Below are positions 33,516 to 60,325 of a DNA stretch of 64,000 nucleotides, one piece after another (the first letter of the stretch is position 1; the number at the start of each line of letters is the position of its first letter). The DNA is from Eubacteriales bacterium (lineage in GTDB: Bacteria; Bacillota; Clostridia; Oscillospirales; CAG-272). Under the pieces are notes generated by a model. The model was not told the DNA's origin and did no database searches. It saw only the letters and a list, made by a program, of their open reading frames with translations. A program made the translations under genes and the position numbers. Location of the stretch: positions 36,638-100,637 of the forward strand of contig JAZQGR010000041.1 in NCBI GenBank assembly GCA_045540115.1, written 5' to 3'.

Positions 33516-33845
33516 CTGTATAATGTCTGTATCGTTCAGTTCAAGACTGCAAAAAACATATTGCTGAATACATGAAATTTTATAACGAAAAGCGACCTCA
33601 CCGCGCTAACAATTATAAAACGCCCAATCAAGCCAGAGGAGCTTTTCTGCCAAAGAAAAATGAACCACAGTGTATAAATCACACGGTTCAAAAGTCATTA
33701 CTGTTTTTGGGTTTGCAACCCATTTTTTGATTTTTTGTAAAAAGAATCTTCAATATACAAAAACGCAAAAATCCTGTATTTATCGATAAAAATTGGAGTC
33801 AGTCTCTCGCAGTCCAACAAAACCGTTCAGAACTTGACTCCTATT
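33516..33845 (+). mobile_element. IS3-family (rve/DDE) transposase C-terminal fragment plus right-end repeat (remnant A)
   Basis: Translation gives ...IAEYMKFYNEKRPHRANNYKTPNQ (the YNxxRxH...TPxQ motif of integrase-core transposases). Followed by an ~200-nt region homologous to 42540-42760 and 41320-41602, ending GAACTTGACTCCTATTCAA. Confidence 0.6.
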
Positions 33846-33929
33846 CAACGCAAAATATAGAATTTAACGAATAATAATCATTTGTTTTATATTTAAAGAA
33901 TATTTTATAATAAAACACACAAAAATAAA

Positions 33930-34175
33930 ATGGAATCGCAATTGAATGCGATTCCAAAAGGAGATATTGATTTGTATAAAAAAGGATACACAGCAGAACA
34001 GGAGTATATTGCATGCATAAATTATATATACGATAGTGAACCTGTTACATTCGAACAATTGTGGAGATTTATATCTTTATTTGAACTGACAAAATCTCAA
34101 AAAATAAATCTCATTAACGAAATATTAGATTCTACACTTGTCCTATGTAAAAACTGGACATTTTTTATGCGATAG
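33930..34175 (+). CDS. Hypothetical 81-aa protein (uncertain)
   Basis: ORF in an AT-rich region with a weak RBS; its 3' end overlaps the convergent 69-aa ORF. Confidence 0.25.
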   Translation: MESQLNAIPKGDIDLYKKGYTAEQEYIACINYIYDSEPVTFEQLWRFISLFELTKSQKINLINEILDSTLVLCKNWTFFMR

Positions 34176-34374
34176 CAAATGCTGACTGATAATAAACAGA
34201 CAAATCATCATTAACATCTGAGTACTCCACCAAACCCATGTTAAGAAGTTCGTCAAGAACATTTAAAATTGCTTCTTTATCTGTTATACCTTCTAATGCC
34301 AATTTATTAAATAAATCTGACATCAAAAACGGTTTTTCCATTTCTAAAATGGTTTTTTGAATTATCAAATCCAT
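34165..34374 (-). CDS. Hypothetical 69-aa protein downstream of the HD-domain gene
   Basis: Good GGAGGAATTAAAGT RBS; same strand as, and 77 nt downstream of, the HD gene. Confidence 0.45.
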   Translation of the reverse strand: MDLIIQKTILEMEKPFLMSDLFNKLALEGITDKEAILNVLDELLNMGLVEYSDVNDDLSVYYQSAFAIA

Positions 34375-34450
34375 ACTTTAATTCCTCCGTTAATTTTTGA
34401 TTATAACCGAGCCTCAACATTGTACCACATTATTTCACAAATGTCAATAA

Positions 34451-36451
34451 TTATTGATTAATTTTTTGCTCAATCTTAATCTTCTTTAGTTCTTCAATAA
34501 ATATCCTAAGAACTATGTTTTCAAGTTCTTCAAATTTTGGCTTTTGCGTTAAATCTTTTGAATTCAATGGCAAAAAATAAAGATGGAATGGAACATATGA
34601 TGCTTTTTGCTGATTCAACAATTCGTCACAAATCGACACCATTTCTACACTACGAGCCTTTTCGTCTTTATCCCAAAGATAAAGTGGAGAACCTATATTA
34701 TAGCATCCCAAAGAGAACTCACATGGTCTTATGATGCAATGTAATATATTGAGTTTTTTTCCTTCTTCAGTAGCTAAATAGTCATTTATTTGTTGTTCAA
34801 CACTTTGATAGAAAAAGCTTCTTTTATTTTTGCCGACACTGATAAAGGAGTTCGTCACTGTGTTAAACACGTACCCTGCATTGTAGCGTTTTTGATCTTT
34901 GATTTTTGCGGAAATGCGATCATACATACTTTTCATAGTGCTATTTTTAAAACACGCACTCTCATTCAACCACATTGTTTTAAAAGAACTATCAAAATTA
35001 ATAAAGTCAACATTTCGTTTGAAATAGGAATAATAGTGTTTTTTGGTCGAAATCAGTTCATCAAACATGTTCCACATATGATCACTAGAATTGTTGTTTT
35101 TATCTCTATAATGCTCTTGATATTTTTCAAAAAACGACACTTTTAAAAGAGTATCCATCCAGCTATCGTCAAGTTGAATAATTAAATAATCTATTAATCG
35201 ATTGTTCTTAGAAAGATAATCCACCAAGCACCAAATACTGTAAAGCTTCAGGGGTAATGGTTGTCCATTTTTTATGGTTGGAATATCCTCGTCATCCTTA
35301 ACTGATTTTAGTTCCTCAAAACCTATAAATGATAAAACCTCGGAAAATAAAATTTCATGCTTGTGAACTCGGTGATGAAAATTAATTTGGCTAAATATTT
35401 TCCATCTGCGTTCCAGAAGATCTTCAACGTCGGTTACATTTTTCAAGGCGGGGCAAAATAAAATTCTCTCCCTTATAGGTGATTGCTCCGGATTGTTTTG
35501 AATATCTGCAGGCAATTTTTGCGATATGATTTTAAAATTATTAAATAGCCTTTGATAGGAAATGATATCCTTTCGCGTCCCTGCGCAAAACGCATCTCTT
35601 GAACAATAGTCTAACCTATCAGAATCAAGTATGCCAGATACAATTCGATGCAGATCACTAAATAAATTGTTTTCCGAGGGAGTCGAAGTTAATATTTTGC
35701 CCACAAAGAAAAGCGTTGCAAGAACAAAAATGTTGTCTTGGGTTATGTTATTTGATAATTCTTCCGACAACTCAAGCTTAATTTGTTTCAACAATGCATT
35801 GCCTATTTCTTCATGCAACTCATTTTGACCTTCACAGTAAGGCTTCAATATTTTAATAAAATGCTTTTGAGCCTTGTTGGGATTCGGAATATCATTAACC
35901 TTGGAATATAATGATTTTGTAGCATGTTCAAATACATGACTATAAGGTAAATGCCCTGCATCATGTAACAAACCAGCAATTCTAATAGATTGAAATAAAA
36001 CGAAGTATGCAAAACTTTGTTCAGCCTTAATGTTTTGTGGAAAATGCGTACGATAAATTGCGCAATCCGGGACTTTAACACTTAAAACATTGTCATCGAA
36101 TTTATCCACAATATCATTACTTAGCATTTTTTCAGAAGAAACATCTATGTTTTTAAACCAGTTTTGGAGTTCTGCTTCTGCTTCTGATAATAAACGTGTA
36201 ATATTATATAAATTTGTTGTGTTGACCACGCTATTATAAAAAATTTCTCCTGATAAATACATAGTTCCAATACTATGTTCAAATCTTTTAACTTTATTTG
36301 AAGAGTATGTTAAATAAACCAATGAACTTTGTAAAATACGGTGCAAACGATTGAAGATAGGGGTGCTTATTATTGCACCTTCCAATCCACTATATGATAT
36401 TGTGTTGTGAATAATATCACTAATTTGTTGGGTTCTTTCCAATTGTATCAT
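34451..36451 (-). CDS. HD-domain phosphohydrolase (dNTP triphosphohydrolase/SAMHD1-like N-terminus) with a long C-terminal extension
   Basis: HD motifs RFEHSIGTMYLS and GLLHDAGHLPYSHVFEH. 666 aa, very AT-rich codon usage. Confidence 0.65.
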   Translation of the reverse strand: MIQLERTQQISDIIHNTISYSGLEGAIISTPIFNRLHRILQSSLVYLTYSSNKVKRFEHSIGTMYLSGEIFYNSVVNTTNLYNITRLLSEAEAELQNWFKNIDVSSEKMLSNDIVDKFDDNVLSVKVPDCAIYRTHFPQNIKAEQSFAYFVLFQSIRIAGLLHDAGHLPYSHVFEHATKSLYSKVNDIPNPNKAQKHFIKILKPYCEGQNELHEEIGNALLKQIKLELSEELSNNITQDNIFVLATLFFVGKILTSTPSENNLFSDLHRIVSGILDSDRLDYCSRDAFCAGTRKDIISYQRLFNNFKIISQKLPADIQNNPEQSPIRERILFCPALKNVTDVEDLLERRWKIFSQINFHHRVHKHEILFSEVLSFIGFEELKSVKDDEDIPTIKNGQPLPLKLYSIWCLVDYLSKNNRLIDYLIIQLDDSWMDTLLKVSFFEKYQEHYRDKNNNSSDHMWNMFDELISTKKHYYSYFKRNVDFINFDSSFKTMWLNESACFKNSTMKSMYDRISAKIKDQKRYNAGYVFNTVTNSFISVGKNKRSFFYQSVEQQINDYLATEEGKKLNILHCIIRPCEFSLGCYNIGSPLYLWDKDEKARSVEMVSICDELLNQQKASYVPFHLYFLPLNSKDLTQKPKFEELENIVLRIFIEELKKIKIEQKINQ

Positions 36452-36502: not shown

Positions 36503-37005
36503 TTGTCAAGTTTTGTAAATTATTAATATCAACTGTATATAAGACACTGCGTGGCCGTTTTCATAATATAATTTTCAAAAGGAGGATTATATCATGAAAT
36601 CTAAATTCACTTATGAAGAAAAACGAGCGATCTTGGCTCTTTACATATCAAATTTCGAGTCTTGCACAAGCATTATTTGGGATGTTAGCATTTCTCAAAG
36701 CACCTTTTACACTTGGCGTTCTGCTTATCGTAAAGAACATGAAGAAGTCAACGTAAGGTGTTAAGCTTACGCAATTCAGATTTGCTTGAAGCAAAGGCGA
36801 GGCGTTTGGAAAGTATTATTGAAATCATCAGAAAAGCCAACGCAATCCCCCAGTGCTCCTCTAAAGCAAAAGCTCTATGTAGCCGAAAAGTTACCGGTTA
36901 ATATAGCGTTCATATGATTATGCTATTGCCTTGAACATTGCTCGTAGAACGTATCAGAATCATTTTCTGCGAAACGAACGATATAATGCGGGACTTGACT
37001 CCTAT
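36503..37005 (+). pseudogene. Degenerate IS3-family element left part (IRL-like end, frameshifted orfA, start of orfB), truncated
   Basis: Hand translation gives MKSKFTYEEKRAILALY...ISQSTFYTWRSAYRKEHEE (orfA HTH), then stop; LLEAKARRLESIIEIIRKA (leucine-zipper region), then stop; then NIARRTYQNHF (orfB N-terminal motif). Ends at the ACTTGACTCCTATT 15-mer. Confidence 0.55.
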
Positions 37006-37009
37006 TTAA

Positions 37010-37807
37010 TTATATATTGTTTACCAAAAAGTCAAAGCAATTATATTCTATCATTTTATGAAAGTTTTGTTGTATTTTTGTTATAAATTCAAACGCTTTT
37101 AAGTCAATATTATACGGATAAAGGGCACTCTTATATAACACAGTATTACGATCATTGGTGTCTAAATATGTTATACGATTAACGGGCGAAAACTTAGTGT
37201 AAAAAAACTCTACGCAGTTGATTTTTTCATAATTGCTTGAAAAAAATGGATAAAAAACATATCGATCGAAGCAGAAATAAGAACAATGTAGTACACGATT
37301 ATTTTTTAGTACATCTTTGATTACATTATAACCATTGGGGCGCAAATGAATATTGTTATTAATTCTCTGAATTTGTAAATCTGATTTATTGATGGCAACG
37401 ACATCATCGGAAATAAATGTGAAGGAATTATTAACTAAATAACAAGTTAATGTTGATTTCCCCCTAGATGTCGGAGACAAAAAAACATATGCCTTATCCT
37501 TTTTTTGAACAGCAGAAGCATGAAACAAAAAATAATCAGGTATCATTATTGAACTTTCATATATGTATTTATTCAAATAATCGACCGGGTCCCTGACAGT
37601 TAGCTCCAAACCATCAACACACACTTTTGATTGAAAACCGTTCAGAACATCAATATGGATATTGTGTGTTGCCTGCGCAACATTTGTTGCATACTCTCCA
37701 TAGGCAATTTCTAACCATTCGTACAAGTGTCTGCTGTTTGTTGTAATACTATATGATGTTGTATGAAATGGTTTTTGGATGGTTAATTTCATTATAATCA
37801 CTTCCAT
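37010..37807 (-). CDS. HPr-kinase-like P-loop protein (HprK C-terminal-domain family), RiPP cluster 1
   Basis: Walker A SPTSRGKSTLT. Comparable in size and motif to the HprK-like kinases at 47096 and 61671. Confidence 0.65.
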   Translation of the reverse strand: MEVIIMKLTIQKPFHTTSYSITTNSRHLYEWLEIAYGEYATNVAQATHNIHIDVLNGFQSKVCVDGLELTVRDPVDYLNKYIYESSIMIPDYFLFHASAVQKKDKAYVFLSPTSRGKSTLTCYLVNNSFTFISDDVVAINKSDLQIQRINNNIHLRPNGYNVIKDVLKNNRVLHCSYFCFDRYVFYPFFSSNYEKINCVEFFYTKFSPVNRITYLDTNDRNTVLYKSALYPYNIDLKAFEFITKIQQNFHKMIEYNCFDFLVNNI

Positions 37808-39348
37808 ACAGATTTGATTTGATCATAGGTAAGGCCGTAACGCTTGGCAATATCTTGAGCATAGCTCTTACCGTCGCTCTTTTCGCGATACACCTTATAG
37901 GTTCGCCTATCGTGATAAATTCCAACTTTCAGATAATCAATAACAGAACGCGAATTTGCTTGCGCATTATACCTTTCCGTTACTTCAACCACCTCGTGAA
38001 GATGAGTTGAAAAGATGCCACGGCATCCTATATCCGTTACACCGCGAATGAAATCGCAAGCTATATATGTTGCTTCATAGGCATTCGTTGATGAAAGCGT
38101 TTCATCCAAAAGTAACATACTATGGGGAGAAAGCTTTTCTACGATTGCCGACAATCTATGACATTCTTCTTCGAGACGACCCATACCATTTCCGCTTTCG
38201 CCGACACTTTTCGGAAAATGGGTATATAAGCCGAGAACCGGACTTATTGAAGCGCTCTCGGCAGGAACCAACCATCCTAATTGAGCAAACACTTGTATGA
38301 TACCAACGCATCGTAAGAAAACAGATTTACCCCCTTGATTAGGTCCGGTCAAAATATAGAATTGTCCTTTTTCATCAAAAGAAAAGTCGTTCTTTACGAT
38401 TTTAGCAGCACCAACCTGCAGTGCAGTGACCGGATTGTAAGCATTTTTTACCGAAAAAACTTTTTCACCCGTTGGGTGAATTATCGGCTTACAAAGAGGC
38501 AGTCGAAGCTCTGTCAAGAAGCGGTGAATTTTTACGCTTTCTGTAAGGAAAATCAAAACGGGTAATGCTTCCAGCAGTTCTTTACACGAATTAGAAAGAA
38601 ATGCGTCAACCGTTGGCTGCCACTGTGATAGGTTCTTTTTAAACCATTTATTAAGTGCCGTATAGATTGTATCATTCATTAAAGATGACTCATGACGATT
38701 CAAAACTTTCGGTGTCGTAAGAGGAGCCATAGAATGAAGGGCGTTAGCATCTTGAACCGATAACAAGCGCTCAATAAGCGTTTTGCTGACGATCGGCGTT
38801 GTGTTGATGGACAGAATCCCGCCGTCTTTGAGTGACAGGTCTTCATTGAAGTTGAACCCAAGAGAAATACTTCTAATTGAGCCGATCTTTTTCAGAAGCT
38901 CTTTAGTTCCCTCTCTGAGCTTCCGATACTCATCTGATTCAGCCATCTGCACAACTTCAGAATAAAAAGCTCTGATAGAATCCGAGGTTGCATTATTAAA
39001 GTGTTCGCTGTTCTGCGTGATCGTGTCAATGCAATGAAAATATATTTCTAGCTGTTTTACAGAATACAGATGTGTCTCTGCAGCATAATGCGCTTCCCGT
39101 ATATTGACCATGTTTTTAATATACCGCAAATCATCAATAACCGAAAGAAGGACAGCATGTAGCTCAGGAATCGATACAAGGTCATTAATGACATGATTGC
39201 GTTCGCGAATTACTACCTCATCTGTAGAAATATACTCAACCAGGTTTAAATCCTTGGAGTACAAGAGATTATTTAATCCCAGATCTGATATCAGTTCGCC
39301 GGCATGATCGAAAGATTCGTCACATTTTTTGATAATAGAATCAAACAT
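37798..39348 (-). CDS. MutS-family ATPase (MutS2-like: core/clamp plus domain V, no mismatch-binding domain)
   Basis: ILTGPNQGGKSVFLRCVG (Walker A), LLLDETLSSTNAYEA (Walker B), STHLHE (MutS ABC signature). Confidence 0.7.
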   Translation of the reverse strand: MFDSIIKKCDESFDHAGELISDLGLNNLLYSKDLNLVEYISTDEVVIRERNHVINDLVSIPELHAVLLSVIDDLRYIKNMVNIREAHYAAETHLYSVKQLEIYFHCIDTITQNSEHFNNATSDSIRAFYSEVVQMAESDEYRKLREGTKELLKKIGSIRSISLGFNFNEDLSLKDGGILSINTTPIVSKTLIERLLSVQDANALHSMAPLTTPKVLNRHESSLMNDTIYTALNKWFKKNLSQWQPTVDAFLSNSCKELLEALPVLIFLTESVKIHRFLTELRLPLCKPIIHPTGEKVFSVKNAYNPVTALQVGAAKIVKNDFSFDEKGQFYILTGPNQGGKSVFLRCVGIIQVFAQLGWLVPAESASISPVLGLYTHFPKSVGESGNGMGRLEEECHRLSAIVEKLSPHSMLLLDETLSSTNAYEATYIACDFIRGVTDIGCRGIFSTHLHEVVEVTERYNAQANSRSVIDYLKVGIYHDRRTYKVYREKSDGKSYAQDIAKRYGLTYDQIKSVWK

Positions 39349-39379
39349 AAATCTACTTTCTTACATTAACGACAACATT

Positions 39380-39670
39380 TTATTGCCGTGAAATCAAGAT
39401 GTTATTATCAACCATCTCATTAATACACATTTTCATGTCTTGACAGATTTCCTCCAATTCATCGGGGTTCTCTGTATCAAATTCAAAGTAATTTCTCATA
39501 AAGGAGAGCAATTCAATGTCATAAGAGCACTCTTTAAAATAATCGAAAATCCTTGATGATGTTTTGTTTAGAATAATGACTTTTTCATGCTTTTCCAAAA
39601 AAACGATATACTCATCTTCCACATTTTCAATTGAGAGTTCATTATTAACCATCAAATGCTTATATTTCAT
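39380..39670 (-). CDS. PqqD-like RiPP recognition element (RRE) protein
   Basis: MKYKHLMVNNELSIENVEDEYIVFLEKHEKVIILNKTSSRIFDYF...LEEICQDMKMCINEMVDNNIL has a PqqD-like pattern. Start taken at MKYKH, 28 nt after the rSAM stop. Confidence 0.55.
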   Translation of the reverse strand: MKYKHLMVNNELSIENVEDEYIVFLEKHEKVIILNKTSSRIFDYFKECSYDIELLSFMRNYFEFDTENPDELEEICQDMKMCINEMVDNNILISRQ

Positions 39671-39698
39671 ATGTATTCCTTTCATTGATTCTTTTTTC

Positions 39699-41003
39699 CT
39701 ATTGTTCTGCAATTTCATAAACAAGGTATTCTGGGCTCTCTTTAACAAGCTTTAAGTATTTGTTATTATATTTTGTGTCGTTAATCAATTTTTCATAGTA
39801 CTGCTTCCAATACAGTCGCTTACATTCACATTGTTGGGCAAACATTTGCGGTGCTTCTTTGGCTCTTAACGGGCATCCACCTCCGCAGTGAATAAATGCA
39901 ATGCAGTTTTTGCATATCTGGTAATAGTCAGAATAATGTTGAGACGAAATGTTATCACATACATCGAAAAACTCTAACTGCTCGTTCTGTATATTACCCA
40001 AGACAATATTAGAATTATGATCATCTAAACAGTTCAATATTCGACCGCTTGCATCAAGCCAGGGGTTATTGCCATACGCCGCCCCACAATTATCACAACT
40101 TATGAACTGCTTAAAATATGACGATCTAAAATTTATAGGCAACTTGTGTAAATAAACATGTTCTTCCAATCTTACATATTCTTTTACAAAGTTATTATAC
40201 GAACTAGCATGCTTTTTCGCCCTTCCCTCGGGCATTACTGGCTCGATATCCCAAGAGCGAAGATTGGGGAACTCCGTGCTTATATAGTTTGCCATTTTTG
40301 TGAGCAATCCATAATCATCCGGCCAAATTGTTGTTCTAATTGAAAAGTTGAATTTTATTGAGTCCAAATATTTGAGTGTTTTATATACAAATTCATGGGT
40401 ATCATAACAACTTGAACTGCAACGATTTTTATTTTGTGTTTCGGGATTTCCATCATATGATACCATTATGGAATCAAAGTTCGATTCTAAAAATACGACT
40501 TGATTTGTATTCAAAACCCCGTTAGTGGTTATTCCTAAAAAAACAGGAATTCCATGTCGAGCAAAAACTTCTCGAATATATTCTACCGATTCAGTAAGTA
40601 ACGCCCAATTATAGGTCGGCTCTCCCCCTCCCGCAAAATATATTTTGGGAGTATTATAGAGTAAATGCATCTTTTTTCTGATTATTGCATTTTTCACGAA
40701 CCAGTTAACAAATGTTTTCACTTGGGAGAAAGACAATTCGTCTCCTTGCGTTTTGGAGTCAAATGAACAATAATTACAGGAAAGATTGCACCTATTTGTT
40801 AGGCTGATTCCAACTGATAAAGGCATTTTCAGTTTAATGTTATAGGGATCATTATTGTAGGTAATATGGCCAAAGTGAGCTGAGCAATTCTTTGGATCAC
40901 ATTCAACTTTTATTGGGATTAGAGAGGTGACATCAGTTTTTTTTACATATACTCTGTTGTTCAAACCATCAATCAAAACTTTGGCATCGGAATAAGGCAA
41001 CAT
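39699..41003 (-). CDS. Radical SAM / SPASM-domain peptide maturase
   Basis: CxxxCxxC (LTNRCNLSCNYCSF), glycine-rich FAGGGEPT, C-terminal SPASM Cys cluster (CDNCGAAYG...CKNCIAFIHCGGGCPLRA). GGAGG RBS. Confidence 0.8.
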   Translation of the reverse strand: MLPYSDAKVLIDGLNNRVYVKKTDVTSLIPIKVECDPKNCSAHFGHITYNNDPYNIKLKMPLSVGISLTNRCNLSCNYCSFDSKTQGDELSFSQVKTFVNWFVKNAIIRKKMHLLYNTPKIYFAGGGEPTYNWALLTESVEYIREVFARHGIPVFLGITTNGVLNTNQVVFLESNFDSIMVSYDGNPETQNKNRCSSSCYDTHEFVYKTLKYLDSIKFNFSIRTTIWPDDYGLLTKMANYISTEFPNLRSWDIEPVMPEGRAKKHASSYNNFVKEYVRLEEHVYLHKLPINFRSSYFKQFISCDNCGAAYGNNPWLDASGRILNCLDDHNSNIVLGNIQNEQLEFFDVCDNISSQHYSDYYQICKNCIAFIHCGGGCPLRAKEAPQMFAQQCECKRLYWKQYYEKLINDTKYNNKYLKLVKESPEYLVYEIAEQ

Positions 41004-41048
41004 ATAATCCTCCTTTTTACTATTACAGTTAGCATGCGCTAATATAAA

Positions 41049-41231
41049 TTAGATGTTTTGAGCTACATTAGCAACGCAACCGGCCGCCGGTCCGCTCATA
41101 CATACTCCTCCCGAGGTGCATCCCGGGAATTCGAGTGAGCGACAGTCGCCAGATCGCGCTAGTGCCTTGATATCGTTAAGCGCCTTTGAATCAATAACGG
41201 TTATTTGATGCTTTTCATATTTTGTTTTCAT
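41049..41231 (-). CDS. Cys-rich RiPP precursor peptide 1 (60 aa)
   Basis: MKTKYEKHQITVIDSKALNDIKALARSGDCRSLEFPGCTSGGVCMSGPAAGCVANVAQNI. GGAGGAATATT RBS. Four Cys in the C-terminal core; directly upstream of the rSAM gene. Confidence 0.65.
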   Translation of the reverse strand: MKTKYEKHQITVIDSKALNDIKALARSGDCRSLEFPGCTSGGVCMSGPAAGCVANVAQNI

Positions 41232-41319
41232 AATATTCCTCCATTTTGCGCACGCTAACTGTATTTAGCACAAACACTGTCTATTCACTTTGATAATACC
41301 ACTTAATTGAATAAATGTC

Positions 41320-41602
41320 AATATTAACTTGTAAAATCCCCGAAATTATTTTGTTTTTCGATTTATTTCGAATTAAGTTTATTGAATTTGATGAAATATG
41401 CGAAAGAACGATTTCCTAAAACGGTTATTAAAAATCAAAATCTCCAATGGAAGATCCGCGTCTATCATTGGAGACTATTATGTAGTAGCGATAATCCAAT
41501 CCGAAAACTAAAGAATGCCGACGTTTCAGTGAATGGGGACCAACGAAATAGTCAATATTTACAAAAAAATAAGTCAAGCCTCAAAGTCTGTTTAGAACTT
41601 GA
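41320..41602 (+). repeat. Third copy of the IS3-family right-end region (no transposase body), ending TAGAACTTGACTCCTATTCAA
   Basis: Homology to 33620-33845 and 42540-42760 (for example GTTTTTCGATTTATTTCGAATT versus GGTTTTTCGTTTGGAACTCGATTTTTGAATT). The terminal 22 nt are nearly identical to remnant A. Confidence 0.45.
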
Positions 41603-42760
41603 CTCCTATTCAAAAGATGAAGAAATAAATTACAAAAAGCGATATGAAATACTAAAAAATACCAAGCCTTCCTCAAGGCACAACGAGAGAAAAAGTAATA
41701 TTTATCAATATGCACATCGAAGAATACTCACTCGACAATATGTGTGAGGTGTTAGATATTTCGAAGAGAACGTATTACAAGTATCGTGCAGCAGAAGATA
41801 AAGACTACTACGACTACCTTTTGATCAAAGAAATGTTTGATGAATCAAAAGGCACGTACGGTTATAGTAGGATTTGTGATGGCTTATTGGTTAAATATGG
41901 TGTAATATTTAACCACAAAAAGACAGCAAGAATCATGAAAAAGTATGGTTTAAAGCCGGAGTATATTAAACGCATCAGACCAAACTACTCAGCTAAAAGG
42001 CAAGAAGAAAACGTTAAACCGAATTTGCTCAAAAAGAACTTTAATGTTAGTGAACCCAATCGGGTGTGGGTTACAGATATTACGTATCTGATCTTTGGCA
42101 ACAAACGAGCTTATCTATCTACTATTCTTGACCTTTATGATAGAAAAATCGTTGCGTATCAGATCTCGAAACGCAACGACATTAAATTAGTTATTGATAC
42201 ATTGAATCAAGCTATTGCTAAAACGAAGGATGCATCAAGCCTTATCATTCACAGTGATCAAGGCTTTCAATATACATCCTTCGAGTACAAAGCCGTATGC
42301 GAATCTAATGGGATACAAATTTCCATGAGTCGAAAAGGCACTCCGATCGACGATTCCCCCATTGAGAGTTTCCATAGCATACTGAAAAAAGAAACTTTGT
42401 ATAACAATTATATCACATCTTTCGATGAATATCTACTGCTTGTTGAGGATTGTTTGAATTTCATAATACTTCAAAAGCAAAAAACAGGAAGAGATGAGTT
42501 CTCTTCCTGCCTTTGTCGTGGTTTTCTATTCTTGTGAACTAAATAGGGTTCACTTCACTTTTCTACCAAAGAAAAAAACCGTAGTGTCTAAATCGCGCGG
42601 CTCAAAAGTCGTTACTGGTTTTTCGTTTGGAACTCGATTTTTGAATTTTTACAAAAACGATTTTAAATGGGCGAAAATATAAAAAGCCTGAATGTATCGA
42701 TAAGAAATAGCAGTCATTTTCTCACAGTCCAATAAAGCTGTTGAGAGCTTTGCCCATATT
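41603..42760 (+). mobile_element. IS3-family element right part: orfA C-terminal fragment, orfB (integrase core, 41710..42537, C-terminus degenerate) and IRR
   Basis: orfB has the DDE/rve core (VWVTDITYL...HSDQGFQYTS...). The region upstream is in a different frame with stops, so it is frameshifted and probably a pseudogene. The 3' region is homologous to remnant A. Confidence 0.65.
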
Positions 42761-43062
42761 CGATATCCGTGATATCACGATACAAAAAATATAATTTTTT
42801 TCGTATAAATTTGATGAATTTTCAAATAATATCATTTTATATATTGAAAAAATGCAAAATGTGTGATATAATAAAATAAAAAAGTGAAAAAACACAAAAA
42901 TTATGAAGATATTTAACGGAAGATTATTGCGACGAAGCGTTAGATTGTACAATTTTTAAGCAATCGAATTGGTAGTTAGAAATATAATTATTGAATTTGT
43001 ATTAATTTTGAATCATTTGTCAAGCTGTTATTTAGTGAAAATACGTTTATGGGAGAATTATT

Positions 43063-44856
43063 ATGAAATCAGTAATAAAAGCCAATAAAGAAAATTTAAA
43101 ATACCTTTTTCGACATTTCTGGCCGCTTATTATTGTAGAATTGTTGTTTGCAATTACAAGTGGAGTTTCAGGAGCGATATCTTCATTCATGTCAAAAACA
43201 TTTATAAATAGTATAATTAATGACAAAAGCTTAAAAGTTGCAATGAATGTTGTTGTTGCGGTTGCGATTTTTGTGCTATTTAAAAATATAATTCAAAGTA
43301 TTGTTAAAGTTTATTCAAACTATGTGTTTTCTAAAGTAAGAGTGTTTTCAAAAACTATTTTTTTAGGATATACGAAACAACTAAATTTATCTTTTTTTGA
43401 TATACCAGAAAACAATAATTGTTTGTCACGTGCAGACCAATATTCCAATGTTGGCACAGAACAATTTATTTCATATGTTTTTTCAGTATTCGCCAATATA
43501 ATCGGGTGTATAAGTATATTGTTGATAATGTCCGATTTTGAGTGGTGGATTGTGTTTTTTTTACTGGTGTTGATGTCTTATAAATTAATAATTGAAAATT
43601 TTCTTTCAAAAAGAAATTTTAAATTTAAAAAGGAACGAGTTATACGCGAGCGACGGATCGGTTATTTTTCAAATTCATTCAAGAGTGCTTCGATATTAAC
43701 AGATTTGCATATATACGATGGCATTGATTTTTTTAAGCATCTATTTGAAAAACATTCGGAGGAAAATATCAATTTACAGACCAAACACAATTTTAAAACT
43801 GAATTGTTGTTTGCTTCAACCTACTTAACTGTTTTTATACAGAATATTGTTTTGTACTTGTATGTAGGTACTGCATTGCTGAATGGGTCCATAAATATTG
43901 GAGAATTTACGATGTTTTTTTCTGCTATCGGCTATTTAAATGCGTTACTGCTTAATTTTAAAAATTCCATATCAACACTATATCCAATTATCTTGGAATC
44001 TCAAAATTATTTAGATCTGATCAACATCGATTCAAAATATAAATATAATATACAAAAGTCGGGTCGAGTAAAGGTTGATAACATTAAGACAATCGAATTT
44101 AAACATATCTATTTTAGGTATCCGAAAAGGACTAACTTTGTTCTGAGCGACGTATCGTTTACTATAAATATGGGGGAGACAATATCTCTTGTAGGGATAA
44201 ATGGATGCGGCAAAACAACAATAATTAAATTATTGCTTAGGTTATATGAACCTACGGACGGACAAATCCTAATTAATGGTATCTCAATAGAAGAAATTGA
44301 TATCGAGAATTATTGGAAATTATGTAGCACTGTTTTTCAAGATTATTGTATTTATCCGATATCTGCATTTGAAAATATATCTTTGAATTGTGTTACCAAA
44401 AGCAACGCTGAATATGTCGCGGATTTAATGAAAAAAGTAGATATTGCGTATAGGTTTGATAAAGAACAAATGGGCATTTTCACTCCTCTTTCAAGAGATT
44501 TTGATGAAAATGGTACGGTTCTTTCAGGCGGCGAAAAACAAAAAATTGCTTTTGCAAGAGCAAGTTATAAGCCTCATTCTATACTGATATTAGACGAGCC
44601 GTCCAGTGCTTTGGATGCGCGAGCAGAGCAGGCATTATTTGATTATGTTGATTGTACTAAAAGCCACAATAAAATTGTAATTTTTGTTTCACACAGACTA
44701 TCAACATCAACCACTGCAGATAAAATTATATATATTGAGAATGGATGTGTATCCTGTTGTGGTTCCCATGACTACATGATGAACAATTGTAGTTCATATA
44801 AAGAGCTGTTTGAAATTCAATCTTCTAAATACGAGCAAACAAGTGTAAATAAATGA
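43063..44856 (+). CDS. ABC exporter, fused permease and ATPase (no C39 peptidase domain), RiPP cluster 2
   Basis: Six TM helices, then Walker A GINGCGKTT, signature LSGGEKQKIAFARA, Walker B ILILDEPSSALD. Confidence 0.8.
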   Translation: MKSVIKANKENLKYLFRHFWPLIIVELLFAITSGVSGAISSFMSKTFINSIINDKSLKVAMNVVVAVAIFVLFKNIIQSIVKVYSNYVFSKVRVFSKTIFLGYTKQLNLSFFDIPENNNCLSRADQYSNVGTEQFISYVFSVFANIIGCISILLIMSDFEWWIVFFLLVLMSYKLIIENFLSKRNFKFKKERVIRERRIGYFSNSFKSASILTDLHIYDGIDFFKHLFEKHSEENINLQTKHNFKTELLFASTYLTVFIQNIVLYLYVGTALLNGSINIGEFTMFFSAIGYLNALLLNFKNSISTLYPIILESQNYLDLINIDSKYKYNIQKSGRVKVDNIKTIEFKHIYFRYPKRTNFVLSDVSFTINMGETISLVGINGCGKTTIIKLLLRLYEPTDGQILINGISIEEIDIENYWKLCSTVFQDYCIYPISAFENISLNCVTKSNAEYVADLMKKVDIAYRFDKEQMGIFTPLSRDFDENGTVLSGGEKQKIAFARASYKPHSILILDEPSSALDARAEQALFDYVDCTKSHNKIVIFVSHRLSTSTTADKIIYIENGCVSCCGSHDYMMNNCSSYKELFEIQSSKYEQTSVNK

Positions 44857-45947
44857 TCTATGATACTATGAGGTGTAACATGTACGAAACAATTACTGCA
44901 AAGACTGTGTTAATAGAAATAACTAATACGTGCAATATGAGATGTACACATTGCTATAATAGATTCGATAGAGAATTACATCCCAAGCCATGCTATATGA
45001 CTTTGGAAAATGTAAAGCATATTATCGAAAAATGTATTTTATATAAATTAAATAAATTGTATATTTCTGGGGGTGAACCATTGTGTCATCCGGATATAAC
45101 TAGAATTATTGATTTGTGTGGTAATTATCCAGATATATATTTTACAATTACTACCAATGGGCTATTGCTTACCGAAGAAATCATCAATCAAATAGAACAA
45201 CATACCAATATATGTGTTCAAATCAGTGTCGATGGATTGTCTAAAGAAGTATATGAAGCGCAAAGGGGAATAGGTACATTTGAAAAATTTATATCTGTAT
45301 TGGATCTACTAATTTCCTCTAAAATCAAATATTTAACCGCACGAACTTGTGTAACAAAGCTAAATTACCGGGAAGTAAAATACATATATGAATTTTTGCT
45401 GAATCATAATATTATGCCTTCTTTTTTATTCGTAAATCAAATGGGAAATGCAGCCGAAAACTGGGATATATTATCCCTAAGTATGGCAAATCAGTTAAAA
45501 GTTCTTAATGATATCAATGTATTAAACAAAAAATATTCACAAACTATTACTCCGCCGGAACCAGTATCAACTTGCAATTTTACTGAAAATGTTGAAGTTA
45601 AATCTATGTTGATTAAATATGACGGAAATGTAGCCCCGTGTCAATATTTTTATTCAGAAAACATAGGTAATATTTTTGAAAAGGATGTTTCTGAAATACT
45701 TAATTATGAAAATTTAAAAAGCTATTATGAGTTAGCAAGATACAGAAAAGAGGTTCTTGAGTCAAGCAACACGTGTTCTAATTGTAGAATAAAAAGGATT
45801 TGTTCATATGGTTGCATAGGGCTTGCAAAAATTTGTGGGGATACTTTGGGAATGGATGGTCAGTGTTCTTATCGAACACACGTTGTGTCAATGTATTCGA
45901 ACGGAATAATTCCTATGCCGGGCAAAGATGTGGAGGATTTATTGTAA
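44853..45947 (+). CDS. Radical SAM / SPASM-domain peptide maturase
   Basis: ITNTCNMRCTHCYN (CxxxCxxC), ISGGEPL, C-terminal CSNCRIKRICSYGCIGLAKICGDTLGMDGQC. ATGA overlap with the ABC gene stop. Confidence 0.8.
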   Translation: MIYDTMRCNMYETITAKTVLIEITNTCNMRCTHCYNRFDRELHPKPCYMTLENVKHIIEKCILYKLNKLYISGGEPLCHPDITRIIDLCGNYPDIYFTITTNGLLLTEEIINQIEQHTNICVQISVDGLSKEVYEAQRGIGTFEKFISVLDLLISSKIKYLTARTCVTKLNYREVKYIYEFLLNHNIMPSFLFVNQMGNAAENWDILSLSMANQLKVLNDINVLNKKYSQTITPPEPVSTCNFTENVEVKSMLIKYDGNVAPCQYFYSENIGNIFEKDVSEILNYENLKSYYELARYRKEVLESSNTCSNCRIKRICSYGCIGLAKICGDTLGMDGQCSYRTHVVSMYSNGIIPMPGKDVEDLL

Positions 45948-46504
45948 TGAAAAAAATTTTTGCAAAATTCAAACAAGTAACGATCGCATGTGCAATATCT
46001 ATGATTATATATGTGTTAACTTATTGGATAACATCCGCTTTTATGAATGCGACATCCAAGCCGATGTATTTGCTTGCGTTAGGAATTTATTCGCTTATGT
46101 TCATGTGTGTATTAAATTTGATTTTGATTTATCGTGAATATATCAAAAACTCTGCTGGCGAAGAAAATGCAATACAAGATTTCAAAAATGGATATTGGGG
46201 ATTCAAAACAGATATAATCTTTTTATTTAGACGTGAATTATCCACTCTTATTACATTTGCATTAATAAATAGCACAAGTTGGATAATGATATCGATAGAT
46301 AAACTGATTTTTTCGAAAAGAACTATAACTGCGATTCTTTTGTTATATGCGCCGTTAAATATTGTAGGTATCACTTTGCCTACATGGGCTAATAGTATAT
46401 TGGGATATTTATTGGGAACCATTTTGTGTTTTGCGATATATCTTTTGGAGCTTGTGATCTTTCGCAAAAAATGGTATATACATTGGAATGAGACAAGGAG
46501 GTAA
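45948..46504 (+). CDS. Polytopic membrane protein (candidate immunity or export accessory)
   Basis: Start at MKKIFAKF; 4-5 TM helices; immediately precedes the precursor gene. Confidence 0.5.
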
Positions 46505-46506
46505 AA

Positions 46507-46767
46507 ATGTTTTATAAACCAAAATTGATAGAAATCTCTATTGAAGAACTTATCAACCATATTCGTATTAAAGCTGATTCTTATACTGGTCCGTCTTGTA
46601 CATGGTCATATGTTGAGGAATACGCATGTGGCGTTTGGGCCGATGGTAGTGATGGTGCCGGGGGCGGAGATTGGGGAAATATGTGTATTGAAATCGGTCC
46701 TTTATTTGGTTGCAATGAACATGAGGATTGGTATTGTAGCACACAAATAACGCCTATCGTTAGATAA
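46507..46767 (+). CDS. Cys-containing RiPP precursor peptide 2 (86 aa)
   Basis: Perfect AGGAGG RBS. Leader-like N-terminus (MFYKPKLIEISIEELINHIRIKADSY), then a core with five Cys and a Gly-rich stretch (GSDGAGGGDWGN). Confidence 0.55.
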   Translation: MFYKPKLIEISIEELINHIRIKADSYTGPSCTWSYVEEYACGVWADGSDGAGGGDWGNMCIEIGPLFGCNEHEDWYCSTQITPIVR

Positions 46768-46839
46768 AAAATTATTACAAGCTCCCTCGAATTAGATTTT
46801 AAAATTATAAGTTGGGTTACTTTAAGCAAGGAGAAATTC

Positions 46840-47103
46840 ATGAAATATATAATAAATCAAGACTTCGATAAGATAGATGATGAGAATAAGACTATTTTGT
46901 TCACAGGTACTGTTGAAAATGTGTACATACTAAACGAAATAGAGACACAGATTTGGAAATTGTTTGATCGCCCCTGCTTTATCACTGAAGCACATGAAAA
47001 GTTTGATACAGTTACTAGTCAAGTAAAGGTTAAGAAAGAAGATTTTTTTGATTTTGTTGAGCAATTAATTATTATGAGGATCTTAATTTTATCTAATGAT
47101 TAG
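46840..47103 (+). CDS. PqqD-like RRE protein
   Basis: ILNEIETQIWKLFDRPCFITEAHEKFD...EDFFDFVEQLI. AAGGAGAAATTC RBS. Confidence 0.55.
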   Translation: MKYIINQDFDKIDDENKTILFTGTVENVYILNEIETQIWKLFDRPCFITEAHEKFDTVTSQVKVKKEDFFDFVEQLIIMRILILSND

Positions 47104-47893
47104 GATATCTTTCCAATTCTCTAATTGTTCCTTTATTGTGGATTCTCCAGCTATTATTGAATCACATATATTTGAAAAGTTTCTTTTGTTTGCTGAATTT
47201 ATAAAAGCAATTGACCATGAAAGTCAAAGTATAGTGATTTGCGTAAACGAAAATGATATAAACATTTATAACAATAAAACAAGAAGAAATCACATCATTA
47301 GATGTGATTCTCATTACGATGTATTTAAAAAGATTATTAATTTGATACGCGAGAATACGATAGTCAACGGTGATGTTTGTGTATTACATGCGTCTTTTAT
47401 AAAAATGTTTAATAACGGTATTCTATTATTAGGGGAGAGTGGTGCTGGCAAGTCGACTTTATCAGCATATCTTCATCTGATGACAGGATGTGAATGTTAT
47501 ACAGATGATATAGCATTTATGAATTATAATACGAAGGTAACTCAAGGCGTGTCGCAATATATTAATTTGAGGTCGTCTTCACTGGATTTGTTACCCGCAA
47601 ACCATAATGCGGTTTATGATGATTTTATTGAACGATATAAAATCATCATAAACAATCGTTCTAAAGAAAAGGTGGATTATATCGTTATGTTGAATCGGCA
47701 AAACGATTCAGAGGTTGGAATAAAACCAATTGAAAACCCTATAAAAGTGTTGACACAAAATATGTATTTACCATATTCATTAAAGAATAATATTATTGCT
47801 GCCAATAAATTAGCAGCTCAAAGCAACGTATATGAAATGTGTTATTCAGATTTGTTTTCTGCATATAATCTTTTGAGCGAATTAGAAGGTTGA
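47096..47893 (+). CDS. HPr-kinase-like P-loop protein
   Basis: LLLGESGAGKSTLSAYL Walker A; overlaps the PqqD gene stop. Confidence 0.65.
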   Translation: MIRISFQFSNCSFIVDSPAIIESHIFEKFLLFAEFIKAIDHESQSIVICVNENDINIYNNKTRRNHIIRCDSHYDVFKKIINLIRENTIVNGDVCVLHASFIKMFNNGILLLGESGAGKSTLSAYLHLMTGCECYTDDIAFMNYNTKVTQGVSQYINLRSSSLDLLPANHNAVYDDFIERYKIIINNRSKEKVDYIVMLNRQNDSEVGIKPIENPIKVLTQNMYLPYSLKNNIIAANKLAAQSNVYEMCYSDLFSAYNLLSELEG

Positions 47894-48898: not shown

Positions 48899-50545
48899 CT
48901 ACACGTAATTGTTGTTCAGATTTTCATTGACTTTATATCCACCTCCGAATATTATATCAATCTTCCCGTCTTTGTAAACTTTGATGCACTCAACCATCTG
49001 TCTTACAATCGTGTCATCGTATACATCTCTATTCATCTCCCTTTGGCCGATCGTGTTTTGAATACTCTTTAAGCGCTCCGCATAGGATTCGTCTTTCGCT
49101 TCGCTTTCGCGGATTGTTTCAATTCTTCGTTTGAGCTGTTCTGTTTCATCTGAGATAGCCTTGAACTCATCCTCATGACTTTCGATGTCTTCTCCGTTCT
49201 GAACGCTCTCATTGACAAGGTAGATCATTCGTTTATTCAGTGCATCGATTCTTCGTTCTAGCAAGTCGATCTCGTCGGAGCCACCGTTAAGCCCTATCGC
49301 ATCGCCGATAGTCGCCTTCATAAGTGTGAGGTATGTTGCTCGGTCATCATCGTTGAATCGGTTTAACGCTCTGACGATTGCTTGTTTCAAAACACCTTCT
49401 TCTACAGTTGGTGAGTCGGTACAATACTTTGTGCCATAGTCAAGTCGACTGATGCATCGCCATACGATTTTCTTTTGACCATTTCTAGACCACGTCACTC
49501 GTTTGTATCGACTTCCGCATTCTCCGCATATCATCACATCAGTTAATGCGTATTTGGAATACTTTCCCGTGGCAGTTAAAGCATTCTTTGTAGATTTTGG
49601 TGCAAGCGCATTTCGTCTGCTCAGTTCTTCTTGGGTTCTATTGAACTTTTCTCGGCTGATGATAGCGGGGTGATTATTTTCTACGAGGTACATCGGAGCT
49701 TCACCCTCATTGATTTTGCGTTCTTTTGTAATACAGCTTACCGTGACGGTCTTCTGCAGAATACAGTCACCGCAGTATTTTTCATTTCGCAGAATGTTTT
49801 GTACCATTCTCTTGGTGAATTTAAACTCCTTGTTCGGGAAGGTTATATTTTCAGATTGCAATATTGAGGAGATGTCTCGCATTGGCATACCGGCAAGAAA
49901 CATATCAAAGATCCGCTCTACCACGGCTGCTTCCTCGGGAACTATTTCGGGTTCTCCGTCGGCTCCTTTTTTATATCCGAGCAGTTGGCTGTACCTGAAT
50001 GACACTTTTCCTTCTTCGAAGTTTTTTCGGAAGCTCCATGTTATGTTTTTACTCATACTTTCAGATTCCGACTGTGCGAAACCTGCGTATATGACAAGGT
50101 AGAGTTCACTATCGCTCTTGAGCGTATCGATGTTTTGTTCTTCGAAGTAAATTCCAATTCCTCTTGCTTTCAGCATTCTAACATATTCAAGGCATTCTAC
50201 GGTGTTTCGAGCGAAGCGTGATACCGACTTCGTGATGATGATGTCGATCTTACCCGCGAGGCAGTCTTTTATCATCTGCTTGAATTGAGGACGCTTATCT
50301 GCTCGTGTGCCTGAAATACCTTCATCGGCGTACAGACCTGCAAATTCCCATTCGGGATTTTTGGCAATCATTTCTGTGTACACTTTTTTCTGTGTTGTAT
50401 AAGAAGTGAGCTGCTCATCGCTGTCAGTGGACACTCGGCAGTAAGCTGCGACTCGTTTTTGATGGTGCTTTTCCTTGTCTACGATCAAGCTTTTCTTTGG
50501 TTCTATGATCGTTATTGTTTTCTTTGGGATTTTCCTAACATTCAA
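48899..50545 (-). CDS. Large serine recombinase (third of the tandem set)
   Basis: Resolvase catalytic N-domain (AAYCRVSTDSDEQLTSYTTQ...SVSRFARN), recombinase domain, zinc-ribbon (CGECGSRY...C) and coiled-coil. Confidence 0.85.
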   Translation of the reverse strand: MNVRKIPKKTITIIEPKKSLIVDKEKHHQKRVAAYCRVSTDSDEQLTSYTTQKKVYTEMIAKNPEWEFAGLYADEGISGTRADKRPQFKQMIKDCLAGKIDIIITKSVSRFARNTVECLEYVRMLKARGIGIYFEEQNIDTLKSDSELYLVIYAGFAQSESESMSKNITWSFRKNFEEGKVSFRYSQLLGYKKGADGEPEIVPEEAAVVERIFDMFLAGMPMRDISSILQSENITFPNKEFKFTKRMVQNILRNEKYCGDCILQKTVTVSCITKERKINEGEAPMYLVENNHPAIISREKFNRTQEELSRRNALAPKSTKNALTATGKYSKYALTDVMICGECGSRYKRVTWSRNGQKKIVWRCISRLDYGTKYCTDSPTVEEGVLKQAIVRALNRFNDDDRATYLTLMKATIGDAIGLNGGSDEIDLLERRIDALNKRMIYLVNESVQNGEDIESHEDEFKAISDETEQLKRRIETIRESEAKDESYAERLKSIQNTIGQREMNRDVYDDTIVRQMVECIKVYKDGKIDIIFGGGYKVNENLNNNYV

Positions 50546-51413: not shown

Positions 51414-51422
51414 TTTCTTCTC

Positions 51423-53284: not shown

Positions 53285-53331
53285 AGTTCCTCCTTTGGCG
53301 GGACTCTCTTACGAGAGCCCCGCACTCGTTT

Positions 53332-58259: not shown

Positions 58260-58272
58260 TTCAACCTACTTT

Positions 58273-60019: not shown

Positions 60020-60325
60020 CTATATCAATACCTTTGCAAGTATGTTTTCCTTTAAAAAGGGCGGATCTGGTAGTACTACATTGTCACCTTTTGTTATAAC
60101 CATATCAGTGTCCATTTCTATGATGCGGTGTGCAATAATCTTGTTGTCATCTTTATATAGCACAATGTCGCCCACACAATACTCATTACTACTGAGCTTT
60201 ATAGCAGACAAAATAGAGGCCTCGTTCAAAGCAGGTTGCATGCTATTACCATATAATTTAAAGGTGAATATCTTTCCGCTCGGCATCGACTTGATTATAT
60301 TATAAAACAAATCGGCTATTTTCAT
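60020..60325 (-). CDS. S24/S26-family serine peptidase (signal-peptidase-I/LexA-like), candidate leader peptidase
   Basis: YGNSMQPAL (Ser nucleophile box, compare GDSMxPTL) and GDIVLY; 101 aa; 2 nt from the ABC gene start. Confidence 0.55.
   Translation of the reverse strand: MKIADLFYNIIKSMPSGKIFTFKLYGNSMQPALNEASILSAIKLSSNEYCVGDIVLYKDDNKIIAHRIIEMDTDMVITKGDNVVLPDPPFLKENILAKVLI

Follow-up and report, generated by a model that had tools for sequence, protein, structure and literature searches.

A 64,000-nucleotide (nt) stretch of DNA from an Eubacteriales bacterium (contig JAZQGR010000041.1; this whole stretch is referred to below as the window) carries a compact group of five co-directional minus-strand open reading frames (ORFs) at 37010-41231, which we denote cassette 1. 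All five had been pointed out in a preliminary description of this DNA, and all are present and full length in the ORF listing of the window. In order of transcription, they encode a small Cys-rich precursor peptide, a radical S-adenosylmethionine (SAM) enzyme with a SPASM region, a predicted PqqD-like recognition element (RRE) of the type found in pathways for ribosomally made peptides with post-translational modifications (RiPPs), a MutS-like ATPase, and a protein resembling HPr kinase (HprK). We read cassette 1 as an operon for a probably cross-linked and possibly phosphorylated RiPP, with the MutS-like ATPase as an accessory, and put the probability of this reading at about 0.65. Judging from the sequences, cassette 1 is a member of a family, represented by at least 19 loci, in which a radical SAM-SPASM maturase is combined with the leader, RRE, and kinase module of linear polyphosphorylated peptides (LPP) and paeninodin-type lasso peptides; what is unusual about cassette 1 is the recurrent MutS-like ATPase.

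From the gene content, motifs, homology, and synteny, which are observed directly, we infer every chemical step of the following scenario. The precursor of 60 amino acids (aa) would begin with a Yxx(P)x(L/I/V)-type leader, which the small PqqD-type RRE would bind in the way seen in the structures of LppB and of the B1 proteins from lasso peptide pathways. The RRE would then present the Cys-rich core to the radical SAM-SPASM enzyme, and the latter most likely forms sactipeptide- or ranthipeptide-type thioether cross-links, as many as four, from the core Cys residues. The HprK-like kinase most likely phosphorylates Ser/Thr of the same RRE-bound precursor, as its homologues in the paeninodin-type and LPP pathways do, and export and leader removal are probably supplied by sister cassettes on the same island. 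A thioether-linked, possibly phosphorylated peptide, the product proposed at the outset, remains the best prediction for this locus.

The predicted peptide maturation core and its relatives

The precursor of cassette 1 consists of a leader of approximately residues 1-28 (MKTKYEKHQITVIDSKALNDIKALARSG) and a core of approximately residues 29-60. The precursors of related loci (denoted, as are the other comparison contigs, by L numbers) were identified among the small ORFs listed upstream of each radical SAM gene in the fetched contexts. Nearly every related locus has one or two Cys-rich ORFs with N-termini that align with that of the window precursor, and homologues sharing the leader lie upstream of homologous radical SAM genes in at least 14 distinct loci; the 60-aa ORF that had been singled out as a precursor from the letters of the window alone is, in other words, conserved in the homologous loci. 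The family leader consensus is MxxYxxPxxxVxDxxxLxxIxAxAxS, followed by the first Cys, and the leader Tyr5 is near-invariant across the family precursors. The closest relative of the window precursor is that of L094 (40% identity), and the cores of the L003, L094, and L102 precursors contain a C-x3-D motif where that of the window has C-x3-E. Many family precursors end in Ser (…TTKSS, …KSTS, …GKTNS), recalling the paeninodin-type lasso peptides, in which a C-terminal Ser is phosphorylated by HprK-like kinases. One or two terminal Ser residues are found in the precursors of L010, L011, L012, L013, L016, L021, and L022, as well as in that encoded at 62655-62792 of the window; the precursors of the MutS-bearing cassettes have no terminal Ser. 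A search of curated precursor families yielded no match for the window precursor and no credible match for eight family precursors.

The proteins that occupy the RRE position in related loci align with the window RRE, and nine of these 14 proteins match PF05402 (best E value 1.2e-7). Among the sequences of the Protein Data Bank (PDB), the top three matches to the profile of this family are all RREs, namely, 9X8Z_B (2.2e-4), 5V1U (TbiB1, 2.3e-3), and 9X90_B (0.014). Two of these, 9X8Z and 9X90, represent LppB and PbaB1 bound to their own leaders (PMC13381572), and, by analogy with the complexes described in that work, the cassette 1 RRE would bind its leader as well.

The radical SAM enzyme matches PF04055 with an E value of 5.7e-9 (36.8 bits against a cut-off of 29.5). 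Its best match in NCBIfam, the best among 65 radical SAM models, is the PapB model (NF047865; 1.7e-29, residues 64-380), at 103 bits against a cut-off of 340, so that, by the curated rule, it is not a member of that family. In an alignment of 33 sequences, the three cysteines of the CX3CX2C motif (C72, C76, and C79) and all seven SPASM cysteines (C306, C325, C364, C367, C373, C377, and C392) are invariant. A separate Pfam SPASM match was not found for this protein; the PapB and SCIFF-maturase models align through its SPASM region. With about 60 aa, the N-terminal extension leaves no room for a fused RRE, which fits the presence of a separate RRE gene. A search of 5.8 billion proteins recovered 97 relatives at 25-40% identity and a single identical sequence. 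Look-ups of the exact sequences of the window radical SAM and MutS-like proteins gave no record. Taken together, the motifs, the conservation of the leader, and the RRE family profile support the assignment of a RiPP trio of precursor, radical SAM-SPASM enzyme, and discrete RRE that had been made in the preliminary description, and the SPASM Cys cluster on which this assignment partly depended holds across the whole alignment.

The HprK-like protein is predicted, on sequence grounds, to be a P-loop protein of the superfamily that unites HprK with phosphoenolpyruvate carboxykinase (PEPCK), and is a putative peptide Ser/Thr kinase. A word-based search found only one near-identical match; when 1.84 billion representatives were searched exhaustively with a profile, 3193 relatives were recovered at E<=1e-3 and 178 of these at E<=1e-10, the best-scoring ones being mostly about 265 aa long. 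Alignments of 14 and 60 sequences show no variation at His91, G111-K112-x-T114, D130, and R151; D129 never varies among the 14 sequences and hardly does so among the 60. The succession of His, Walker A, Asp-Asp, and Arg is the catalytic layout of HPr kinase/phosphorylase (HprK/P). Consistent with this, the kinase profile aligns to HprK/P 1KNX (0.0087) across the H-G, P-loop, and DD motifs, and to PEPCK (0.0024); HprK/P and PEPCK have a common fold. The likeness to HprK, pointed out in the preliminary description, extends beyond the P-loop. All 60 relatives match HprK_rel_A, 33 of them HprK_rel_B, 15 ScmC, and 10 the bona fide HprK model TIGR00679; every one of the 60 falls below the HprK_rel_A cut-off, the best E value being 5.9e-20.

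The family was surveyed through 19 distinct loci that hold a radical SAM enzyme of this type, the genome scan for such loci having been run with a nine-sequence alignment of these enzymes. The usual gene order is precursor, radical SAM-SPASM enzyme, RRE, HprK-like kinase, and MsbA-like exporter, with or without a protease resembling signal peptidase I (SpI) and a nucleoside triphosphate (NTP) transferase. An adjacent RRE is found in 17 of the 19 loci, an MsbA-like ABC exporter in 14, an HprK-like gene in 13, an SpI/S24-type peptidase in eight, a MutS-like gene in four, and NTP_transf_5 in three. In most related loci, the exporter lies directly 3' of the HprK-like gene, and the MutS-bearing cassettes have no adjacent exporter or peptidase. 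The arrangement exceeds what chance would produce, given that unrelated contigs contain homologues of four of the five cassette 1 products, arranged in the same order.

Two further sets of loci illustrate how this core varies. In a Chitinispirillales metagenome-assembled genome (L008/L014, 7578-14076), the genes that come after those for a radical SAM enzyme of the same family and its PqqD partner encode a VWA protein, a PP2C phosphatase, and a Hanks-type Ser/Thr kinase; there is no HprK-like gene after the radical SAM/PqqD pair, and the 105-aa precursor contains three C-x-C-x-x-G repeats. This may be a case of kinase replacement. In Deltaproteobacteria and methanogens (L042, L068, L072, L073, L077, L081, L082, and L088), an HprK-like gene lies beside one or two SPASM-type radical SAM genes, with an S24/SpI-like peptidase gene also present in L042, L072, L073, and L077. 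These distant loci imply that the association of radical SAM enzyme, kinase, and peptidase is phylogenetically broad, in the manner of the SynChlorMet cassette discussed below.

The MutS-like ATPase

The fourth gene of cassette 1 is the one that sets it apart. Its product matches MutS_V, PF00488 (7.4e-24; 85.2 bits against a cut-off of 30.2), and, over residues 85-457, the KamC model, NF052383 (6.4e-24; 84.6 bits, where the cut-off is 300). The scores with the MutS1, MutS2, and KamC models are alike and all far below the cut-offs, and only the KamC alignment reaches the N-terminal half of the protein. We found no MutS_I, MutS_II, or Smr domain in it; the protein starts in the lever region. The AlphaFold2 (AF2) model has a predicted local distance difference test score (pLDDT) of 82 and a predicted TM-score (pTM) of 0.80 and, in a Foldseek search, retrieves E. 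coli MutS and human MutSbeta (E ~1e-19, query TM-score (TMq) ~0.6, 520-590 columns). As modelled, the protein is composed of the lever (domain III), the clamp (domain IV), an ABC-type ATPase (domain V), and a C-terminal helix-turn-helix (HTH). The Walker A (TGPNxGGKS), Walker B (DE), and T-H-x-H motifs are invariant in the alignments of MutS-like proteins.

The initial label 'MutS2-like' is imprecise for a protein that has domains III-V only and is scored equally by the MutS1, MutS2, and KamC models. It shares domains III-IV-V and the C-terminal HTH with the MutS2 core and with KamC, the total length of which is similar, but differs from MutS2 in lacking the Smr nuclease domain and from KamC in scoring below the cut-off and in having no kam genes in the vicinity. 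KamC is named in NCBIfam as a lysine 5,6-aminomutase reactivase ATPase, and MutS-family genes have been drawn inside lysine-fermentation clusters (PMC3149608). Unlike MutS2 and KamC, many of the MutS-like relatives are paired with a small protein with three transmembrane segments (3-TM). We recovered 492 MutS-like matches altogether, and the few with a named source come from metagenome bins of Clostridia, Ruminococcaceae, and Oscillospiraceae.

Within the family, the MutS-like gene occupies a recurrent position. In the window, L003/L004, and L094, it lies between the RRE and kinase genes; L102 has it just upstream of the precursor gene. The radical SAM enzymes of the MutS-bearing loci are 31-36% identical to that of the window in the alignment (39% for L003 by tblastn), and the window enzyme and two of its closest relatives are the radical SAM enzymes of the loci in which the MutS-like gene is inserted between RRE and kinase. 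In a neighbour-joining tree, the MutS-like proteins of L003, L094, and L102 cluster together, apart from the window copy, and represent a different clade, 35% identical to the window copy. Directly upstream of the MutS-like gene, these three loci encode a 3-TM protein of about 100-130 aa (L003, 9699-9998; L094, 2644-2940; L102, 5250-5573), for which there is no Pfam family; the window copy has no such partner. Homologues of the 3-TM protein also precede stand-alone MutS-like genes in L096, L098, L104/L105, L111, L155, L157, and L167, that is, in at least seven further contigs without a radical SAM enzyme or kinase, which implies that the two-gene module exists independently of RiPP cassettes.

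In the simplest reading of these sequence relationships, one sub-lineage of cassettes keeps a MutS-like ATPase, and the original copy in the window would have been replaced from the stand-alone pool. The ATPase, then, is a recurrent accessory of one cassette sub-lineage and not a general component of the architecture, given that it is found in four of the 19 loci and that the window copy is close to stand-alone genes. As to its role, our preferred guess is ATP-dependent self-protection of the producer, which would suit the pairing with a 3-TM membrane protein and has parallels in antibiotic clusters, where ATPases such as the UvrA-like and ABC-F proteins serve resistance. An alternative is a KamC-like chaperone, or 'reactivase', for the radical enzyme, which fits the likeness to the KamC profile. 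A bolder version of the scenario holds that the MutS lever-clamp ATPase is a genuine, selected RiPP component, which would be the first such case, and that the peptide is both thioether-cross-linked and phosphorylated, a hybrid between ranthi- or sactipeptides and LPP; this strikes us as conceivable and, on balance, doubtful. A literature search found no relevant paper on MutS in RiPP clusters.

Alternative readings and the genomic setting

Several observations weigh against the reading of cassette 1 as an operon for a modified peptide with an accessory ATPase. The window RRE, taken alone, has no match at E<=0.1 to Pfam or NCBIfam families. The radical SAM enzyme scores far below every curated maturase cut-off, so that the type of cross-link is not fixed thereby. 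The HprK-like protein matches HprK_rel_A (TIGR04352) at 8e-11 but, with 41.5 bits, is below the cut-off of 200, and an AF2 model from a three-sequence alignment has a pLDDT of 32. The window leader reads Y-E-K-H-Q-I, with Tyr kept and His in place of the family Pro, and the precursor ends in …AQNI, not in Ser. Cassette 1 has neither an exporter nor a leader peptidase of its own and is flanked on both sides by insertion sequence (IS) elements, and, accordingly, could be a partly disabled copy. The MutS-like gene is missing from 15 of the 19 family loci, and its GC content is 0.41 compared to 0.30-0.35 in the neighbouring genes. Stand-alone genes with products 82-87% identical to the window protein are found in four unrelated contexts (L001, L002, L090, and L091), and all other members of the window clade with a known context stand alone. 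Finally, among 80 metagenome loci recovered with the MutS-like profile, a radical SAM enzyme of this family is present in one and an HprK-like gene in none.

The observations on the MutS-like gene suit the possibility that it is a passenger, a chromosomal gene of a common Clostridia family that was recently captured by or recombined into the operon and would take no part in the production or export of the peptide or in resistance to it, with the peptide pathway being otherwise as described. In line with this possibility, a 54-55% identical relative stands alone in a fifth context (L093), DNA homology with L001 (83%) is limited to the MutS-like gene and about 40 bp upstream of it, and, at 90% identity or higher, the MutS-like protein forms a cluster of six members compared to one for the radical SAM enzyme. 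The chance capture would, however, have to recur: in L003 and L094, the corresponding slot is taken by a MutS-like gene from another clade, and such a gene also borders the cassette of L102, a pattern that fits the replacement of one member of the MutS-like family by another. The spacing is operonic as well, with 31 nt between the stop of the RRE gene and the MutS-like start and the HprK-like start 5 nt past the MutS-like stop; the ORF is intact, and the junction with the kinase gene is 96% identical in a second sample. We consider the passenger explanation possible, albeit rather unlikely. In L001, the 87%-identical stand-alone MutS-like gene (10001-11554) has a GC content of 0.47 within a locus of 0.60 GC, and this low-GC islet suggests that the respective MutS-like clade moves horizontally as a single gene.

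The cassette is embedded in an island of 30-35% GC in the 33-49 kb region of the window, against a background of 45-50% GC (Table 1). The preliminary description had put it at 4.6 kb inside IS debris, which is essentially right: the genes span 4.2 kb, and the gap between the flanking IS3 remnants is about 4.5 kb. GGAGG ribosome-binding sites precede the precursor gene (7 nt upstream) and the radical SAM gene, the stop of the latter is 11-26 nt from the candidate ATG codons of the RRE gene, and AAAGGA lies 5' of the second of these candidates. The start of the HprK-like gene given in the table is also the one called in a 96%-identical contig, L089. The promoter-like site ahead of the cassette is about 60 nt 5' of the precursor start, downstream of the IS3 insertion; such sites are, in total, no more numerous in the region than expected from shuffled sequence. 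Homology with L089 (96% nucleotide identity, including the MutS-HprK junction) stops at about 36865.

Table 1. Features of cassette 1, its boundaries, and the sister cassettes (positions in the window)
Feature	Position	Strand	Details
Precursor ORF	41231..41049	-	60 aa; Cys30, 38, 44, 52; one C-x3-E motif in core
Radical SAM/SPASM maturase gene	41003..39699	-	434 aa
PqqD-like RRE gene	39748..39380 as listed	-	likely ATG 39685 or 39670, giving 96-101 aa
MutS-like ATPase gene	39348..37798	-	516 aa
HprK-like gene	37807..37010 as listed	-	likely ATG 37792, giving 260 aa
Promoter-like site, TTGACA-17-TATTAT with extended -10 TG	41321..41293	-	consensus match only
IS3-family orfA-like fragments, left boundary of cassette 1	36594..36917	+	weak IS3/IS66 TnpA matches
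IS3-family element between cassettes 1 and 2 (divergent)	41382..42537	+	rve 2.8e-27, HTH_21, NF033516 5.8e-76
Cassette 2	43063-47893	+	divergent from cassette 1 across the IS3 element
Cassette 2 MsbA-like ABC exporter	43063..44856	+	ABC_tran 1.6e-29, MsbA models
Cassette 3	57070-62792	-	full LPP core set and a radical SAM enzyme
Cassette 3 MsbA-like pump	58273-60018		
Cassette 3 archaeal-type signal peptidase I	60020..60325	-	TIGR02228 56.6 bits, above cut-off of 51.85; SipW 6e-8

Cassette 1 is not alone in the window, which carries three paralogous cassettes. Cassette 2 encodes, along with its exporter, a ScmE-like radical SAM-SPASM enzyme, a 184-aa membrane protein without a family, an 86-aa Cys-rich ORF starting MFYKPKL, a ScmD-like RRE, and an HprK-like protein. 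Units of the cassette 2 type and the cassette 1 type also stand back to back in two unrelated genomes, L017 and L021. [quoted passage not shown] The exporters of cassettes 2 and 3 and the peptidase of cassette 3 probably serve cassette 1 in trans, as we infer from their presence on the same island.

The setting raises the question of whether cassette 1 is a decaying duplicate of a RiPP operon, the exporter, peptidase, and transferase of which were lost to IS activity, such that there is no product. The IS3 remnants on both sides, the abundance of IS debris in the island, the loss of the conserved leader Pro, and the absence of an ABC exporter, SpI, and NTP transferase, present in 14, eight, and three of the 19 loci, respectively, all point in this direction. 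Decay is, however, hard to reconcile with five full-length ORFs in AT-rich DNA, good ribosome-binding sites, a promoter-like site past the IS element, and catalytic motifs that are all intact, and two exporters and a peptidase are encoded on the same island. Furthermore, L003 and L094 are equally devoid of an exporter, which implies a stable architecture rather than an accident of this locus. We regard decay as improbable.

The mobile island with its recombinases, together with the MutS fold, which suggests nucleic acid binding, also brings to mind a conflict or defence system, in which the radical SAM enzyme, the MutS-like ATPase, and the P-loop kinase would act on nucleotides or nucleic acids according to a viperin-like logic, and the radical SAM enzyme does produce weak matches to models of prokaryotic viperins in PADLOC and NCBIfam. 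These matches, however, reflect the generic radical SAM core and are far weaker than those to peptide maturases; PADLOC found nothing for the MutS-like, HprK-like, and RRE proteins; and RiPP maturation is typified by features seen here, namely, the full SPASM region, the PqqD-type RRE, and a small Cys-rich ORF that is conserved and has a YxxP-type leader. A defence function of this kind, therefore, appears very improbable, and the reading of cassette 1 as an operon for a probably cross-linked, possibly phosphorylated peptide remains the one that we favour.

Among the neighbouring genes, a 666-aa protein with a weak HD-domain match is encoded on the minus strand at 34165-36451, followed by a 69-aa winged-helix-like ORF. 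The HD-domain protein (34451-36451) was considered as a member of the operon and rejected on three grounds: L089 is homologous only as far as about 36865, an IS fragment lies between the gene and cassette 1, and there is a separate promoter-like site for the gene (36509-36482); neither NCBIfam nor PADLOC has a match for the protein, and in L089 it is unlinked to the cassette. The interval between cassettes 2 and 3 (48899-56688) contains three large serine recombinase genes, one of them truncated, along with genes for a DEAD/Helicase_C_2 protein and a sigma-70 region-4 protein. In L003, what follows the cassette is an ORF of 186 aa, comparable in size, together with a similar helicase and a resolvase, and, from this likeness, the cassettes may ride on related integrative elements. 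Copies of a repeat are located at 33530-33848, where an IS3-type transposase ORF overlaps the repeat with its C-terminal end, and at 42568-42761; the segment is present in L089 as well (77% identity), and the copies are probably the ends of IS elements, a sign of repeated IS activity in the island. Scans of the island for tRNA genes and Rfam families found nothing, and searches of E. coli genomes and plasmid collections found no DNA match, whether near or distant, and, at the protein level, nothing but remote matches for the radical SAM enzyme.

Relation to known peptide pathways and implications

The closest parallels come from the linear polyphosphorylated peptides, encoded by lppA-K-B-S-D-N (Popov et al., Nat Commun, May 2026; PMC13381572). 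In this pathway, LppK polyphosphorylates Ser3 of the precursor that is bound by the RRE LppB via a YxxP leader, the leader is cleaved off by an archaeal-type signal peptidase, LppS, and the cluster further encodes an MsbA-like pump and an NTP transferase (PMC13381572). The same leader, RRE, and kinase module serves the paeninodin-type lasso peptides, such that LppK and the paeninodin kinases alike phosphorylate Ser of RRE-bound precursors with YxxP or WxxP leaders (PMC13381572); the earlier notion that HprK-like kinases in RiPP pathways are confined to lasso peptides is, accordingly, out of date. The present family resembles these systems in its discrete PqqD-type RRE, for which the best solved match is LppB (9X8Z_B), its HprK-like kinase, its [Y/W]xxPx[L/V/I] leader motif, and its patchy distribution on mobile DNA, and many family loci as well as cassette 3 add an MsbA-like exporter, an archaeal-type SpI, and NTP_transf_5. 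It differs from LPP in that a radical SAM-SPASM enzyme and Cys-rich cores are always present, and cassette 1 differs further in having only the RRE and the kinase of the core set, His for Pro in the leader, and the MutS-like ATPase. The LPP paper makes no mention of radical SAM enzymes or MutS (PMC13381572). Given that a macrolactam synthetase and a B2 protease are lacking, cassette 1 does not encode a lasso peptide.

With the ranthipeptide and sactipeptide maturases (PapB, the SCIFF maturase ScfB, CteB, and AlbA), the family has in common the combination of a radical SAM domain with a seven-Cys SPASM region and a Cys-rich precursor encoded immediately upstream. The motifs C-x3-E and C-x3-D are typical of PapB substrates, which the window core, with its C-x3-E, and the C-x3-D cores of L003, L094, and L102 resemble. 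The differences are that, in the present family, the RRE is separate rather than fused to the N-terminus of the maturase, the kinase is a conserved partner, and the leader is of the lasso/LPP type.

The third point of comparison is the SynChlorMet cassette (NCBIfam TIGR04248-04251), which combines a PqqD-like ScmD, an HprK-related ScmC, and the radical SAM-SPASM proteins ScmE and ScmF. The same three types of proteins come together here, and ScmE and ScmD are the best NCBIfam matches of cassette 2. The scores, though, come nowhere near the cut-offs (13 bits with ScmC for the kinase of cassette 1; 99 with ScmE and 18.8 with ScmD for cassette 2), and each window cassette has one radical SAM enzyme where Scm has two. 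We know of no product of the Scm cassette that has been characterized experimentally, and our literature search found no paper that mentions the cassette. The co-occurrence of radical SAM, PqqD-like, and HprK-like proteins has, nevertheless, already been modelled under this name, and cassette 1 is one of three such units in the window, so that the picture of a stand-alone, uncharacterized architecture drawn at first has to be modified. Our search of the literature found no paper that joins HprK with SPASM or radical SAM RiPPs.

If the reading favoured here is correct, there would be peptides that carry both radical SAM cross-links and HprK-type phosphorylation, a combination for which we found no published report. 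The leader, RRE, and kinase module would then be a portable unit, joined in this family to a third kind of core chemistry. The three divergent copies that lie side by side in the window offer a natural test case for the question of 'pathway discrimination' raised for LPP. Moreover, the MutS-like ATPase provides a rare functional handle on a large family of MutS paralogues, with more than 490 sequence clusters that come mostly from Clostridia and from metagenomes of the gut or rumen.

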